From: Dictyostelium discoideum
Lineage: Eukaryota
Direction: 5' to 3'
NCBI GenBank assembly: GCA_000004695.1
Contig: CM000154.2
Location: 3,648,001 to 3,712,000 of the forward strand
DNA length: 64,000 bases
A program made the position numbers and the translations under genes. Positions 14,717-34,520 of the stretch are shown one piece after another; within the stretch, counting starts at the first letter, position 1, and every line of letters begins with the position of its first letter. A model generated the notes under the pieces. That model was given only the letters and a program-made list of their open reading frames with translations, had not been told where the DNA came from and did no database searches.

Positions 14717-16674
14717 AAAATTTTTTTTTTTTTTTTTTATATATTATTTTGATTAAAAAAAAAAAAATAAAAAAATAAAAAAAAAATAATAAAAAAAAAA
14801 AAAAAAGATTAATAAAAAAAATAATTAACTGTTTATTATTTGTTTTAAATTAGGAAACGAATTTTTTTTTTTTTTTTTTTTTTTTTTTTTTTTTTTTTTT
14901 TAATCAAAAAAAAAAATAAAATAAAATAAAACAAAAATAAATAAAATAGTAGCAAAAATAAATAAATAAAATTGATTGATTGTTTTTTGTTTTTTTTATA
15001 ATATTGTTATTATATATTATTTTTAAAATTAATAATAAATATTTTTTTTTTTTTAGTAATAATAATAGTAAATGTAATTTTTATAAAAAAAAAATATATT
15101 AAAAATATAAAAAAAAAAAAAAACTTTTTGGTAATTACTAATTATTTGAATAAATGAAATTGTTATTTGGCACAAACAAAAAAAAAAAAAAAAAAAAAAA
15201 ATTTAAATGATTAAAAGTACTAACCACTCAAAAATACGATTTTTTTATTTTATTTTTTTGATTTATATTTTTATTTAAAAAAAAATAGATAAAAATAAAA
15301 AATTAACAAATAAATATCCCACACTATACCTTTTTGGTTTTAAAAGAAAAAAAAAAAAAAAGAAAAAAAAAGATCAAAACAATTTTTATTTTTTTTAATT
15401 AATTTTGTTTTTTTATGATGTAGTTAGTGTTTACAAGATGAAAATTTCTTTTATTATTAAGAGAGAGATTAAAATTTTATTATTGTTATTTAAAAAATAT
15501 TTAGTGGGAAAATTGAGTGGGTCAAAAAATTTTTAATTTAATTTTTTAACATTTTTATGGTCCAAATTTTTCAAATTTTCTGTTAAGGGATCAAGCCCAC
15601 ACTAAAAATGATGAGCAAACTAGATTATTGAAAATACAAAAAGTTAAATGTAAAAATTTAAAAATCCTACATATCAAATATATATTTTTTATTTTTGTAT
15701 TTTTTTTTAGAAAACTATTGGCCTTTTTTTTTATATTGATATATACAGTTTTTGTTTATAAAAATATATGAAAATAGTTTTAAATTAATAAAGATGGTTT
15801 TATTTTAAAATTAAAAAAAAAAAAATTTAAATAAATTAAAATTAATACTTGTTACAAAAAAAATTTGTAAGTATAAAAAAAACAAACCCTCTGTTGAGAT
15901 TGTAAAAAAAAAAAAAAAAAAAATTATATTTAAAATTATTACATTTAGGATATGATATGCCTAATTCCAAAAAAAAAAAAACACTTTCATAATTTTATTT
16001 TAGTTTAAATAATATTATTTAACTAAACTAAAAAACCAAAATAATTTAAATTAAAATTATATATAAAAAAAAAAAAAAAATTTCTATTTATAGTAAATTA
16101 AAAATAATATTTTTTTTTTTTTTTTAGTACATCAATTGCAGAAGAATTAATAATTTTAATAGAAATATTTGGGAATGAATTTTTATACAATAATAAATAA
16201 AAAATGAAAACAATCCATCTAAAAAGAAAATAAAATTTTTTTAAAACAGATAAATGATGCAGATTAGCTGACCAAATTAAAAAAAAAAAAAAAAAAAAAT
16301 AATTAAAAAAAATGATTTTAATTTTTTTTTTTTTTAAAATTAATTAATATTCATTTTTTTTTTTCATTTTAATTTTCATTTTATTTTTCATTTTTTTTTT
16401 TTTTTTTCAAACAATAATTTAAATTTATTAATTCTTAAAATTAATTAAGTATAGATAAATAGAGCACACAAAAATACACAAAATGATATAAAAATTAAAA
16501 AAAATGAATGTGATCATTCTATTTTTTGAATTTTTTATTTTATTTTTTAAATCAAAAATTTTATTTTTTTGGGTGTCCAATTTGAATGTTTTTATCAATT
16601 TTTTATTATGATTATTTTTTTTTTATTTTTTTTTTTTTATTTTTTATTTTTCAAACCAAAACCCAACACATAAA

Positions 16675-19617
16675 ATGATAGAAAATAATAATAATAAATG
16701 TGTACTTCATCCAAATAATAAATTAAAACTTTTATGTTTTGATTGTAAATTAATTCCATGTTGTATTATATGTACATCATGGTCATAAAACTGATCCATT
16801 GGAATCTATAACAATATCAAATATTCTTTTTTTAAATAATACTTTTAAAGATAATTTTTATCAAGAATTAATAGAAAGGATTCAAAATGATCATATAATA
16901 TTAAAAGAGTCAAATGATACTTTTGAAAAAATTCAATCACAATATGATAATGATATTAATTTATTAAAAAATGAATTTAAAAAAATACATGCTAGAGTTT
17001 CATTTCTTGAATTAGATTTCGAAAAACAACTATCAACAAATTTAGAAAACAATTCATTTAAAAATAAAATTATTACTTCTTCAATCGAAAATGATAATAA
17101 AATAATTTCAACAATTTTAAATAATAATAATAATAATAATAATAATAATAATAATAATAATAATAATAATAATAATAATAATAATAATAATAATAATAAT
17201 AATAATAATAATAATAATAATAATAATAATAATAATAATAATAATAATAATAATATTGAATCAGCCAATGAATGATCACCAATAAACCCATGATATTACA
17301 ATTGAATTAATTCAACAATATCAACAATCACTATTAATAATACAAATAATAATAATAATAATAATGATAATAATAATTATAATATTAATATTGAATCATC
17401 CAATGAAAAATTCATTCAAAGTAAGTTTCACTGAAAAAACACGTTTCATTAAATAATTACTAACTCATTATTTAGAATTTAATCACCTTTTTTATATATA
17501 TTCAGAGAATAATGAATCTTCTATAAATCCTATTGATTCTCAGAGTTTAGCATTCAAAGACAATTGTAACTACTTATCAAAATTAAATACAGTATCAAAT
17601 AAAGCTTTGCTTCTAAATGGATTCAATCAAAAATTAACCAAAGGCATAATACCAGAAGGTGTTAAAGAGTTGTATATATGTGATATAAAACAAGAATTAA
17701 TAATTGGTTCAATTCCTAATACTGTAAGGATGAAGAAGTTGGTATTGCAAAGAAGAGGATTTGGAGAGAAAATCATAAAGATTGGGTTCACTGTTTAAAT
17801 GGATGGAGACATATTCCAAAGCAAGTTGAAGCAACAGTTTGGAATGCTACTCTTTCTTTAATGAAGAATAGAATATCCTTGGTACATCAAAACGCCACTT
17901 TTGCAGGTGATAGAAGATGCCGTTTATGTTCAACAGCTGAAGAGTCAATTGAACATTTAGTAAGTGATTGTGCATCCTTGTACAAATCTGGAGTAATACC
18001 GAGACATGATGGTATAGTGAAAGAAATCGTCAAAACATTGATTAATAGATACCAAATTCCAAAAGTTACCAATTTACTTGAACCAGAAATTAAATATACA
18101 GAAACCAATTCAAATGGTGTAACAGTAACAAAAGTCAAAATAAATGTAGATATGAATTTCAAAAATAGTACCTCAATTAATAATAAACCAGATATAGTAG
18201 TCTTTGATTATGTTGCAAAACTGATTAGAGTTATAGATGTATGTGTTCCATATGATAGAAATATCATCAAAAGGCAATATGAGAAAATTGATAAATACAA
18301 CTATTTTATCAATTATTTCAAAAACCTCTATAAAGATGAAAATGATAAATCATTCGATGTACAAATTGTTATCAATAATCACTGGCGCATTTGGATCAAT
18401 CATCTCAACTAGTACAACTCATACCATTAATAACATTACACACCCAATTAAAACACTCAAAGAATGTGTTAATCAATTACCGTTATCAAATACTGAAAGG
18501 GAATGACTTTCAAAAAAAATTCCAAGACTCGCTATTACAGGTACTTCACTTACTTAACTCATGGTCACAGCACCATTTAATAAACAAAACTAATAATGAT
18601 ATCTAAAACCAACTAATACCAACCCAATGTACATAAATAAACAAATATTAATAATAATAATAATAATAATAATAATAATAATAATAATAAACAATATTAA
18701 TGATAAAATATAATGTTTGCTATTATCACAATTGTACATAATATAAATTACTAACAACTCGAAAAAAACAAGATTACATAGATTTATAAATCTCCCCCTC
18801 TGCGATTAATTAATATATAATTTCAATTTTCTAATTTATAACTTTCATTAGTTCATTTTTTCTAAAATAATTAAATAAAAATTAAAAGCATGAAATGCAC
18901 CTTTTATTCCTAATAGTGTAACAACTGTTAGTTTATGGGATGGATTCAATCAAAAATTAACCAAAGGTATAAAACCAAAAGGTGTTAAAGATTTGTATAT
19001 AGGTAGTATAGAACAAGATTTAATTATTGATTCAATTCCTAATACTGTAACAACTGTTAGTTTAAGACATGGATTCAATCAAAAATTAACCAAAGGTATA
19101 ATACCAGAAGGTGTTAAATTGTTACGTTTACGTAATATAAAACAAAAATTAATAATTGATTCAATTCTTAATACTGTAACAACTGTTAATTTATGTGATG
19201 GATTCAATCAAAAATTAACCAAAGGTATAATACCAGAAGGTGTTAAAGAGTTACGTTTAAGTGACATAAAACAAGATTTAATAATTAGTTCAATTCCTAT
19301 TACTGTATCAACTGTTTGTTTATGTAATGGATTCAATCAAGAATTAACCAAATGTATAATACCAGAACGGTTTAAAGAGTTACATATAGGTGATATTAAA
19401 CAAGAATTAATTATTGGCTCAATTCCTAATACTGTAACAACTGTTAGGTTATTAGATGGATTCAATCAAAAATTAACCAAAGGTATAATACCAGAAAGTG
19501 TTAAAGAGTTGTATATATGTGATATAAAACAAGATTTGATGATTGGCTCAATGTCTATATTTATAAAAGTTGTAAAAAATTACTTGATTCTTTCGTCCCT
19601 GTAAATGTCAAAATAGT
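16675..19617 (+). pseudogene. B-box zinc finger + FNIP-repeat protein gene, family member 1, disrupted
   Basis: 16675 ATG..MIENNNNKCVLHPNNKLKLLCFDCKLIPCCIICTS is a B-box like members 2 and 3. Relative to member 3 (27166 ..ACATCAAGTAAAGGTGAACATCATGGTCATAAAACTGAA) it lacks 17 nt (AGTAAAGGTGAACATCA) at about 16784, giving a frameshift. The coiled-coil/polyN part survives as ORF 16799..17275. The first FNIP repeat is interrupted at 17727 by a 1.18-kb retroelement fragment. FNIP repeats resume at 18906 (ORF 18993..19604, 5 double repeats). A C-terminal frameshift follows ([18 protein letters not shown] vs member 2 [25 protein letters not shown]). Confidence 0.7.
17728..18905 (+). mobile_element. 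5'-truncated non-LTR retrotransposon 3' fragment (C-terminal CCHC zinc-knuckle region of the RT ORF plus 3' UTR) inside an FNIP repeat, flanked by a 16-bp target-site duplication
   Basis: The host repeat reads tcaATTCCTAATACTGTAA|gg... (17712-17727) and resumes ...ttttATTCCTAATAGTGTAAcaactgtt (18906-18921), so 16 bp are duplicated with 1 mismatch. The frame is open from about 17738 to 18412: ..KDWVHCLNGWRHIPKQVEATVWNATLSLMKNRISLVHQNATFAGDRRCRLCSTAEESIEHLVSDCASLYKSGVIPRHDGIVKE...NKPDIVVFDY... The C-x2-C..E-x3-H-x4-C zinc knuckle followed by a (R/K)PDIV motif is the typical C-terminal domain of non-LTR ORF2 proteins. Codon usage is GC-richer than host genes. The 3' part holds an (AAT)n tract at 18651-18700 and no terminal poly(A). 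Confidence 0.65.
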
Positions 19618-34129: not shown

Positions 34130-34520
34130 TTAAATGAATTTGTTGAATGGATTCAATGAAAAATTAAAACCAGGTTTTTATGTGAAGGTATTAAATCGTT
34201 ACATTTATATGATATAAAATAAGATTCTTTAATTAGCAATATTCCAAGATTAGTTAATCATGTTTTATTAAAATTAAAACCCTACATGTATATTGTAAAA
34301 AAAAATGAAGATTCCTTTTTTCAATTTTATACTAAACAAAAACATATTATAGAATTAATTCCAAATATAAAAAATTTATTTTTAAATCCATGGATTTAAT
34401 CAAATTTTAACATCTAGAATAGTATTAGAAGAAGGGATGTGGATTGTTTTTACAAGAATTAAAACTAAAACAGGTGATTCAATTGAAAAAATTAATAATT
34501 TACCATCACTATTAAATATA
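34130..34520 (+). pseudogene. Highly degenerate FNIP-repeat relics
   Basis: ttgttgAATGGATTCAATgaAAAATTAAaaccaGGTtttTAtgtgaAGGTattAAAtcgTTAcATttaTatGATATAAAAtaAGAttcttTAATT.. is still recognisably FNIP-repeat-like (GFNEKL...DIK) but carries stops. A second relic lies at 34380-34440 (aaTccaTGGATTtAATCAAAttTTAAC). Confidence 0.3.

Follow-up and report, generated by a model that had tools for sequence, protein, structure and literature searches.

The window, a stretch of 64,000 nucleotides of Dictyostelium discoideum AX4 chromosome 5, holds a cluster of genes for proteins with a B-box and FNIP repeats, some intact and others broken, and raises the question of how such a cluster forms, varies and decays. 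A sequence-only reading had described here four same-strand paralogs of one architecture, two intact and two pseudogenes. Its observation is confirmed, with the reading frames bearing out M2 and M3 as intact and M1 and M4 as pseudogenes, and its interpretation is partly supported. Our own reading, to which we assign a probability of about 0.72, is that of a birth-and-death cluster whose repeat arrays evolve in concert and vary on their concave face, which hosts an R2-like element that targets FNIP repeats and which codes for adaptor or receptor proteins. The features are the following:

16675-19704, plus strand: M1, pseudogene, partly covered by the AX4 model DDB_G0290101; exon-1 remnant 16675-17420, intron 17421-17475, exon 2 from 17476, shared 3' flank 19561-19704.
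17728-18904 (~1.18 kb), plus strand: R2-like non-LTR retrotransposon copy, 5'-truncated and dead (frameshifts).
19946-22241, plus strand: M2, intact reading frame of 744 aa; exon 1 19946-20816, phase-1 intron 20817-20877, exon 2 20878-22241.
22161-22580, plus strand: M2 3' flank; 22175-22324 matches M1 19561-19704, and all of it is common to an M2-like copy on another contig.
23708-25351, plus strand: iron-containing alcohol dehydrogenase (Fe-ADH) gene between M2 and M3, unrelated to the cluster.
27019-29951 (26969-29951 with promoter), plus strand: M3, intact reading frame of 952 aa; exon 1 27019-27928, phase-1 intron 27929-28002, exon 2 28003-29951 (14 units).
29946-30110, plus strand: M3 3' flank, matching M4 33503-33662 at 92%.
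31131-33662 (31080-33662 with promoter), plus strand: M4, pseudogene; intron 31536-31610, array of ~10.5 units, degenerate tail 33050-33503, shared flank 33503-33662.
34134-34520, plus strand: fifth FNIP relic, heavily decayed, with stops (LLNGFNEKLKPGF...); tblastn E 1e-4 to 1e-6.

Pfam searches matched both expected domains in M2 and M3. For zf-B_box, exon 1 scored 29.4 bits in M2 and 29.3 in M3 (gathering threshold, 24.1), and FNIP reached 350 bits in M2, 532 in M3 and 134-176 in fragments of M1 and M4. Exon 1 of M2 codes for the B-box and then a long helical/polyN region, while exon 2 comprises an N-cap, 9 units of 43 aa and a C-terminal cap. The proposed phase-1 intron was read from the sequence (GTAAGT...TAG), and the spliced lengths match independent gene calls of 744 aa (M2) and 952 aa (M3) in a 99.6%-identical strain. 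For M3 we chose the acceptor at 28003 over the one at 28036 because of the 952-aa call in the near-identical strain and because FYIYTD then aligns with FYIYSE of M2. Two details of the sequence-only reading had to be corrected: the repeat unit, given as 40 aa, has 43 (129 nt), and the B-box pattern it proposed finds no literal match, the actual spacing being C-x2-H-x8-C-x2-C-x4-CC-x2-C-x6-HH-x-H. The single architecture holds overall, but M4 is without the B-box and M3 without the C-terminal cap. M3 ends abruptly (TVTF*) where M2 has this cap, and may be non-functional.

Regarding the pseudogenes, M1 carries a frameshifted B-box, an in-frame stop after an (AAT)45 tract and a frameshift ahead of the C-terminal cap; the AX4 protein at this locus (P0014) is a chimera of a retroelement ORF and FNIP units. 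M4 retains a promoter and ATG (31131) with 96% identity to those of M3. Its B-box and first helical region, equivalent to M3 27072-27479, are deleted between polyN tracts, and its array contains frameshifts and a 22-nt insertion (spacing of 151 at 32271/32422).

As a family, the B-box and FNIP genes are of an ordinary sort. Among Dictyostelium proteins with both domains only AreA (DDB_G0279871) has been characterised; it interacts with Atg101 and keeps autophagic flux in check (PMC4554924). Like the cluster proteins, it has FNIP repeats and a B-box zinc finger, lacks a RING and belongs to the same organism, but it also has a DUF4559 domain, for which M2 and M3 gave no Pfam match. Animal TRIM (RBCC) proteins likewise place a long helical region after a B-box-2-type zinc finger and end in a repeat domain that binds ligands, a role predicted in the cluster, where this domain is a leucine-rich-repeat solenoid instead of SPRY or NHL. 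The top PDB sequence matches of exon 1 were TRIM5 B-box/coiled-coil constructs, at non-significant scores, and Pfam detected no RING domain in the cluster proteins. In Pfam match, fold match and strand spacing the arrays are akin to the FNIP / FGxxFN / IP22 leucine-rich-repeat proteins (PF05725; CroV588 6nyr, CroV539 7zal): in the AlphaFold model of M2 exon 2 a short strand recurs every 21-22 residues, at unit columns 17-21 and 38-41, and the best PDB match of the model is CroV588, an FNIP leucine-rich-repeat protein (E 1.5e-14, 27% identity). What sets them apart from these proteins is a strict double unit of 43 aa (22 + 21 residues), with GFNQ in every second half-unit only, and variation that reaches position 7 besides 3, 5 and 8. 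L-C or I-G stands in place of the first Phe-Gly of FGxxFN, and the double-phenylalanine spine is therefore not conserved.

Tandem Repeats Finder counted 5.0, 8.8, 13.9 and 10.5 copies of the 129-nt unit in M1, M2, M3 and M4, respectively, and a 26-nt core of the unit is present at 35 places where chance would give 0. Mean identity between units is 0.90-0.91 when M2, M3 and M4 are compared with each other versus 0.91-0.92 within genes, with no positional orthology among the units of these three members. Synonymous divergence (pS) is 0.10 for the units, 0.32 between exons 1 of M2 and M3, and 0.73 between their exon-2 N-caps. Since units are ~90% alike within and between paralogs and the non-repeat parts are far more diverged, the arrays evolve in concert: their units are homogenised across paralogs. 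Amino-acid differences between units concentrate on the concave face and edge predicted from solved FNIP leucine-rich-repeat structures. At positions 3, 5, 8 and 9, set beforehand from the crystal-structure register (PMC9525666), pN is 0.242 and pS 0.075 (pN/pS 3.2), versus 0.050 and 0.110 at the remaining positions (permutation p = 0.00025 for the difference), in a comparison of repeat units that are non-independent lineages subject to gene conversion, and so not a formal selection test. This suggests a binding surface under diversification.

The cluster proteins could be cytosolic oligomeric adaptors or receptors, in which the B-box and the helical region would mediate self-assembly and the repeat solenoid would bind variable ligands. 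One could argue that the whole cluster is decaying junk, with M2 and M3 unexpressed and recently dead, and unit variation produced by mutation or conversion bias. Two of the four members and the fifth relic are indeed already dead, M3 lacks the cap, and the locus has a different gene content in D. cf. discoideum. However, in DNA of 17-26% G+C, where stops arise easily, M2 and M3 have kept 744 and 952 codons open, structural positions show a pN/pS of ~0.3-0.45 with many columns invariant, and both pseudogenes have gathered many lesions over similar spans. We thus regard decay of the entire cluster as unlikely.

M1 also contains an insert that the sequence-only reading overlooked and that is the most unusual feature of the region. 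It sits after the first FNIP unit, in the orientation of the gene, is flanked by a target-site duplication of 13-15 nt (TTCCTAATA(C/G)TGTA), and carries a CCHC motif together with KPDIVVFD, VIDVCVPYD and EKIDKY. In the longest copy found (L007 8595-11075), its counterpart is positions 1268-2480. This copy, 2.48 kb long, starts inside the reverse transcriptase and retains motifs of this domain (LYIDD; RVT_1 E 1e-5); no full-length element was recovered among the copies found. A profile of the copies matches 430 relatives, many of them RVT_1 proteins of 1100-1200 aa matched at their C-terminus, and for one relative (P0034) the nearest solved structures are R2 proteins (E 6e-31). A C-terminal-domain profile that includes the M1 insert, but in which distant relatives predominate, matches the CCHC and PD..D..K endonuclease of the R2 structures 9nl3, 9nl2 and 9dou (E ~1e-12), and the endonuclease assignment depends on it. 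Searched as single sequences, the element gave no match in the PDB, and the AlphaFold model of its C-terminal domain is unusable (pLDDT 33). These sequence comparisons give the element a reverse transcriptase, a CCHC motif and a restriction-like endonuclease of the R2 type.

The element has a marked target. Eight copies from D. discoideum and D. cf. discoideum share the 3' end ...GCACCTTT(C)/TTCCTAATACTGTAAC (the slash marks the junction) inside an FNIP unit, where it separates the S-I codons from those of P-N-T-V, and always have one orientation. At the 5' side the copies start at reference positions 1, 1101, 1268, 1397, 1601, 1677, 1906 and 2220, and in four of the eight the 5' flank ends at the identical site, TTCAAT. 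Another four fragments are without FNIP flanks (L005 twice, L009b and L010). The single 3' junction and the varied 5' truncations of the eight copies therefore define an FNIP-repeat-specific element. Its integration would proceed by target-primed reverse transcription, at a single DNA site recurring in FNIP arrays, and the redundant FNIP multigene family may offer it a safe landing place, as rRNA genes do for R2.

Alternatively, a single ancient insertion might have been copied by gene duplication or conversion, with later deletions giving the varied 5' ends and no site-specific mobile element involved. FNIP arrays clearly swap sequence, two copies (L002a and L002b) lie in closely related tandem genes, and inheritance equally predicts a common 3' junction. 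Yet the starts at 1, 1397, 1677 and 1906 are joined to the same target nucleotide, so that each deletion would have had to stop exactly there. Besides, three copies of one strain reach 98% identity in host genes that reach only 75%, target-site duplications of 11-15 nt flank the window copy and a D. purpureum copy, and D. purpureum relatives with just 48-53% amino-acid identity occupy the homologous L-P-N-S site of an FNIP array. Such an origin is thus very unlikely.

As a site-specific mobile element, it resembles R2 and other non-LTR elements with a restriction-like endonuclease (R4, NeSL, CRE, HERO, Utopia) in its order of reverse transcriptase, CCHC and C-terminal PD..D..K endonuclease, its precise 3' junction without a poly(A) tail, its fixed orientation, its repeated-sequence target, its variable 5' truncations, its small or absent target duplications and its occasional target deletions. 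The usual targets of this group are rRNA, snRNA or spliced-leader genes and microsatellites (PMC4640811), whereas the FNIP element targets DNA coding for a protein repeat, the FNIP unit. The only D. discoideum non-LTR elements in reviews are TRE5 and TRE3, APE-type and tRNA-targeting (PMC5633606; PMC5006619). They too are non-LTR elements of the same compact genome in which 'safe' sites limit damage, but have an APE endonuclease and integrate ~50 bp upstream or ~100 bp downstream of tRNA genes, while the M1 insert has a restriction-like endonuclease and the closest tRNA gene (12286-12361) is >5 kb away. The searched literature held no description of an FNIP-targeting element, which is apparently undescribed.

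Finally, we asked how the members are related. Self-BLAST after repeat masking recovered paired M1/M2 and M3/M4 blocks, with 3' flanks 89% identical over 150 nt and 92% over 167 nt, respectively, and a common M3/M4 promoter (96% over 104 nt); the flank strings named in the sequence-only reading are present at 19627/22241 and 29950/33507. Exon-1 identity is 81-85% for M1/M2, 90% for M3/M4 and 76-80% across pairs. Shared flanks and exon-1 identity give the pairing (M1,M2) and (M3,M4), and the tree ((M1,M2),(M3,M4)) therefore requires at least three duplications. The same-strand cluster stands but is not contiguous, with the Fe-ADH gene lying between M2 and M3 (its ORF, 23708-25351, is identical to AX4 XP_635889.1/Q54GJ7, a probable hydroxyacid-oxoacid transhydrogenase). 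We give very little credence to a simple tandem array of a dictyostelid-specific gene type grown by two successive local duplications, as had been proposed, which fits the paired flanks and promoters but is already contradicted in part, given that two events are too few, that the array includes an unrelated gene and a fifth relic, that M2 and M3 have close relatives elsewhere, and that FNIP repeats occur well beyond dictyostelids, in CroV, Megavirus, Ectocarpus and Entamoeba (PMC9525666; bioRxiv 2026.03.01.708701). RING-less, TRIM-like genes with a B-box, a helical region and FNIP-type leucine-rich repeats form a birth-and-death cluster here. For M2 the nearest relative is on a different contig, in a near-identical strain (98% in exon 1, 94-97% over 19561-22580); for M3 (93%) it is at another locus, in D. 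cf. discoideum, whose orthologous ADH locus differs in gene content.

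The FNIP array of M1, the first of four B-box/FNIP paralogs in the window, is interrupted after its first repeat unit at 17727/17728 and continues at 18905. The insert encodes RCRLCSTAEESIEHLVSDC, followed by KPDIVVFD, VIDVCVPYD and EKIDKY. It appears to be an R2-like non-LTR retrotransposon specific to FNIP repeats, which is the unexpected result of this analysis and is seemingly undescribed. All four paralogs share one strand, as a sequence-only reading had proposed, and an alcohol dehydrogenase gene (ADH) sits between M2 and M3:

10886-10961 and 12286-12361: tRNA-Val(UAC) genes, one in each copy of a direct duplication
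16675-19704, forward strand: M1
17728-18904, within M1 and in its orientation: window copy of the element, 5'-truncated
19946-22241, forward strand: M2, exons 19946-20816 and 20878-22241, spliced open frame of 744 aa
23708-25351: ADH, iron-containing, identical to XP_635889.1/Q54GJ7
27019-29951, forward strand: M3, exons 27019-27928 and 28003-29951, spliced open frame of 952 aa
31131-33662, forward strand: M4
34134-34520, downstream of M4: fifth FNIP relic, heavily decayed (LLNGFNEKLKPGF..., with stops)

ORFs related to the insert were found in AX4 (within the chimeric gene model DDB_G0290101) and in two D. cf. discoideum assemblies, and gene prediction has joined several of them to B-box or FNIP sequence. 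We aligned the element copies to the longest one, at 8595-11075 (2481 nt) of L007, a locus from another assembly; none is full-length, and the longest protein model has 613 aa. Eight copies end in ...AAAAGCATGA(N)ATGCACCTTT(C), directly followed by TTCCTAATACTGTAAC..GGATTCAATCAAAAATTAAC, and this common 3' flank thus places the junction within the FNIP unit, between the S-I and the P-N-T-V codons. All eight are oriented like the gene that carries them, with 5' ends at reference positions 1, 1101, 1268 (the window copy), 1397, 1601, 1677, 1906 and 2220. Four copies have an upstream flank ending in ...TTCAAT, at one and the same target position; the target duplication of the window copy measures 13-15 nt, and two copies show upstream target deletions. 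Within one strain, three copies share 98% identity, although exon 1 of their host genes shows only 75%. Related elements from D. purpureum (48-53% amino-acid identity) lie in the FNIP array of a different gene type, with a 3' junction between ...TTCTTC and TACCAAATAGTCTTACAAC, which is the homologous L-P-N-S-L-T-T site, and an 11-13-nt duplication. Every copy with a recognisable flank sits in FNIP coding repeats. The constant 3' junction, differing 5' truncations, shared orientation and lack of a poly(A) tail are the hallmark of a site-specific non-LTR element that inserts by target-primed reverse transcription.

Some further element sequences were also recorded. In D. purpureum GL870965.1 (locus L012, 7700-7815 and 9325-9440), the element 3' UTR recurs inverted between two element copies, which suggests a nested or rearranged insertion. 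Fragments that lack FNIP flanks or the canonical 3' end occur at three loci from other assemblies (L005 10089-12294, L009 5930-7006 and L010 6044-6327), one of them being an older copy with 76-82% identity; rearrangement or decay of insertions may explain them. On the minus strand at 26729-26773, some 250 nt upstream of the M3 start, a 45-53-nt stretch is 86-89% identical to the endonuclease part of the element; at this length it cannot be called (tblastn E 0.98), and it could be a tiny relic or a chance match.

The window copy has no reverse-transcriptase part. L007 encodes GIFLGDSLCPLLF and LYIDD at 8632-9585, with an RVT_1 match (E 1e-5) whose 25.8 bits miss the 29.6 cut-off owing to truncation of the domain in this copy, and the element-related protein P0163 is assigned PF00078 in the precomputed table. 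A profile of the element copies retrieved 430 proteins at E <= 1e-3, many of them 1100-1200 aa long and matched at the C-terminus; these long proteins carry RVT_1. For one of these, P0034, the nearest solved structures belong to R2 retrotransposon proteins (E 6e-31). Alignment of the C-terminal domain with 16 relatives revealed invariant C, C, H, C, RH, PD, D, K and KY columns, and the C-terminal profile matched residues 988-1156 of R2 9nl3 and their equivalents in 9nl2, 9dou (E ~1e-12) and 8gh6 (~1e-3). The matched region corresponds to the CCHC motif plus the restriction-like endonuclease, with a best E of 8e-13 among the R2 structures. Single-sequence PDB searches with the L007 ORF and with the element-related P0164 gave no match, those with the reverse-transcriptase fragment reached R2 proteins at E 0.2-1 only, and an AlphaFold model of the C-terminal domain from a 5-sequence alignment (pLDDT 33) was discarded. 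Judging from the reverse-transcriptase motifs, the CCHC/PD..D..K alignment and the R2 profile matches, we place the element among the non-LTR retrotransposons with a restriction-like endonuclease.

The dictyostelid non-LTR elements named in reviews and surveys are TRE5 and TRE3, joined by NLTR-A, -B and -C from other species (PMC5633606, PMC5006619), and P. pallidum supplies the only R4-like hint, a partial reverse transcriptase (PMC5006619). TRE5 and TRE3 have an APE endonuclease and integrate ~50-100 bp from a tRNA gene. The insert differs on both counts, with a restriction-like endonuclease and its nearest tRNA genes more than 5 kb from 17728, so a TRE identity was rejected. R2 in the strict sense occupies a conserved site in the 28S rRNA gene, while this element is found in FNIP coding repeats. 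Elements with restriction-like endonucleases target rRNA, snRNA and spliced-leader genes, and microsatellites (PMC4640811). We found no description of an FNIP-targeting element in the searched literature, the coverage of which was incomplete and excluded Repbase. The M1 insert would represent a lineage with an R2-type endonuclease in Dictyostelium, where the described non-LTR elements are exclusively APE-type and tRNA-targeting. FNIP coding repeats would be a new kind of target among site-specific elements, and site choice in protein-coding repeat DNA would extend the 'safe haven' strategies of the compact Dictyostelium genome. Site-specific elements are now being explored for genome engineering.

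Besides the 1.18-kb insertion in its array, M1 carries a B-box frameshift, a stop after (AAT)45 and another frameshift ahead of the C-terminal cap. In M4, the B-box and the first helical segment (the equivalent of 27072-27479) are missing, and the array contains several frameshifts and a 22-nt insertion. These lesions bear out the earlier claim that two of the four members are pseudogenes. The AX4 protein DDB_G0290101 matches M1; its model uses predicted introns to link FNIP units to the element endonuclease ORF and then to further FNIP units. Part pseudogene and part transposon fragment, this chimeric model should be re-annotated. The polyN tract of M1 (17120-17255) is a perfect (AAT)45 microsatellite (100% matches), far longer than the tracts of M2-M4. 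As for the fifth relic, at 34134-34520, it is nearer to the KLKPG-type units of the paralog P0008.

The phase-1 intron proposed for the family is visible in the sequence of M2 and M3. An exact look-up of the two spliced proteins gave no entry; their gene models are confirmed indirectly, because genes called independently in a 99.6%-identical strain are exactly 744 and 952 aa long. Both expected domains were recovered with Pfam. In exon 1, the B-box (PF00643) scored 29.4 bits in M2 and 29.3 bits in M3, above the curated cut-off of 24.1, and both present eight Cys/His zinc ligands, arranged as C-x2-H-x8-C-x2-C-x4-CC-x2-C-x6-HH-x-H. The literal zinc-finger pattern written in the sequence-only reading matches in no frame, and we have taken the Pfam result instead. 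FNIP (PF05725, cut-off 21) scored 350 bits in exon 2 of M2, 532 in that of M3 and 134-176 in the fragments of M1 and M4. Tandem Repeats Finder gave 129-nt arrays of 5.0, 8.8, 13.9 and 10.5 copies in M1 to M4, respectively; the unit therefore has 43 aa rather than the 40 first given for it, and the consensus typed alongside that figure itself has 43 letters. M2 and M3 had been called intact. This holds for M2 and for the reading frame of M3, to which we limit the term because M3 stops abruptly (TVTF*) while M2 has a C-terminal cap. A homologue search with M2 exon 1 returned three proteins only and is of little use in estimating family size.

The repeat arrays differ from the rest of these genes in their evolution. 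Unit identity between paralogs (0.90-0.91) is close to that within them (0.91-0.92), and neither M3 versus M4 nor M1 versus M2 showed positional orthology of units beyond the first one. Synonymous difference is 0.10 among 20 intact units, compared with M2-M3 values of 0.32 for exon 1 and 0.73 for the exon-2 N-cap. Because units are about equally alike between and within paralogs and their synonymous difference is low relative to exon 1 and the N-cap, the FNIP arrays must be undergoing homogenisation across genes. Amino-acid differences among units fall in columns 17, 19-23, 40, 42 and 43. In the register of the FNIP crystal structures, positions 3 and 5 form the concave face and 8-9 its edge (PMC9525666), and the columns for a pN/pS comparison were set beforehand from this repeat register. 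The chosen columns gave a pN of 0.242 and a pS of 0.075, the remaining ones 0.050 and 0.110 (permutation p = 0.00025); this is an indication and no formal test, because repeat units are not independent lineages.

For M2 exon 2, AlphaFold run on the single sequence gave a model of only moderate confidence (pLDDT 66, pTM 0.69), with short strands every 21-22 residues, at columns 17-21 and 38-41. Its best Foldseek match was CroV588 (6nyr, E 1.5e-14), then TLR8 and other leucine-rich-repeat proteins, in agreement with a predicted FNIP-type leucine-rich-repeat solenoid, and the variation pattern fits a solenoid with a diversifying binding face. The units pair near-identical DNA with amino-acid changes focused on the predicted binding face, as do variable receptors built from leucine-rich repeats. 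The FGxxFN subclass has FGxxFN in every repeat and a buried double-phenylalanine spine (PMC9525666); the unit of this cluster falls outside it, since its consensus replaces the first F-G by L-C or I-G and alternate half-units have no F-N.

The pairing of near-identical DNA with focused amino-acid changes offers a lead on the role of B-box/FNIP proteins, among which AreA is the only one studied. AreA binds Atg101 and limits autophagic flux (PMC4554924); it has an additional DUF4559, which Pfam did not match in M2 or M3. Direct reading of the M2 and M3 proteins revealed no N-terminal hydrophobic segment, so they are probably cytosolic. Their layout resembles that of TRIM proteins (a type 2 B-box, a long helical/polyN region and a repeat domain), with the difference that the RING is absent: zf-B_box is the sole Pfam match in exon 1 and begins 14-19 residues from the N-terminus. 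TRIM5 B-box/coiled-coil constructs were the top PDB matches of exon 1, at a weak and non-significant E of 0.78. The mechanism we favour is that of a self-assembling adaptor or receptor whose leucine-rich-repeat face would recognise variable partners. We tentatively propose, at a probability of roughly one in four, that B-box/FNIP proteins are TRIM-like intracellular recognition receptors in which selection keeps the binding face diverse and recombination homogenises the arrays, and that a dedicated R2-like lineage, predating the split of D. discoideum and D. purpureum, uses these arrays as a safe haven and adds to gene birth and death.

Regarding the history of the cluster, the flank strings reported as shared within pairs were found at 19627/22241 and 29950/33507. 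Self-BLAST with the arrays masked supported the pairing, with 89% identity for the M1/M2 3' flanks, 92% for those of M3/M4 and 96% for the M3/M4 promoters. Exon-1 identity is 81-85% for M1/M2, ~90% for M3/M4 and 74-80% across pairs. The evolutionary interpretation in the sequence-only reading was right only in part, as it invoked two successive duplications and the ((M1,M2),(M3,M4)) tree requires at least three. Another contig of the near-identical strain holds an M2-like pair (98% to M2 exon 1, 94-97% over 19561-22580). This is a segmental copy of the M1-flank/M2 region (L004, 9998-13716 of GCA_054883475.1, JBTAPE010000033.1), with two M2-like genes in succession, the first internally deleted and the second of 663 aa; its identity to window 19561-22580 is 94-98%. 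Three further family members lie ~635 kb off on the same chromosome, and D. cf. discoideum carries the closest relative of M3 (93%) at a different locus. At the orthologous ADH locus of D. cf. discoideum, ADH has two M1-like genes upstream of it and a third downstream. The cluster is one of birth-and-death turnover over several loci and, by itself, an ordinary local expansion within a known family; among Pfam domain classes, FNIP repeats have been reported as the most abundant in a Dictyostelium genome (bioRxiv 2026.03.01.708701).

The window, part of chromosome 5 of D. discoideum AX4, has 14-30% G+C. Its other genes next to the cluster serve ordinary housekeeping: malonyl-CoA decarboxylase, an Elp3-like radical-SAM/GNAT protein, purD/purM, a WD40 protein, an S28 peptidase and an AMP-binding reductase. 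The direct duplication that carries the tRNA genes (10646-11127 / 12049-12525) is 87.7% identical over ~480 nt. Two minus-strand ORFs without Pfam hits (5911-6567 and 6846-7670) adjoin a 238-nt inverted repeat of 98% identity (6659-6896 / 8227-8464), and an intergenic tandem repeat at 50126-50602 has ~2-3 copies of a ~150-185-nt unit, 82-86% identical.
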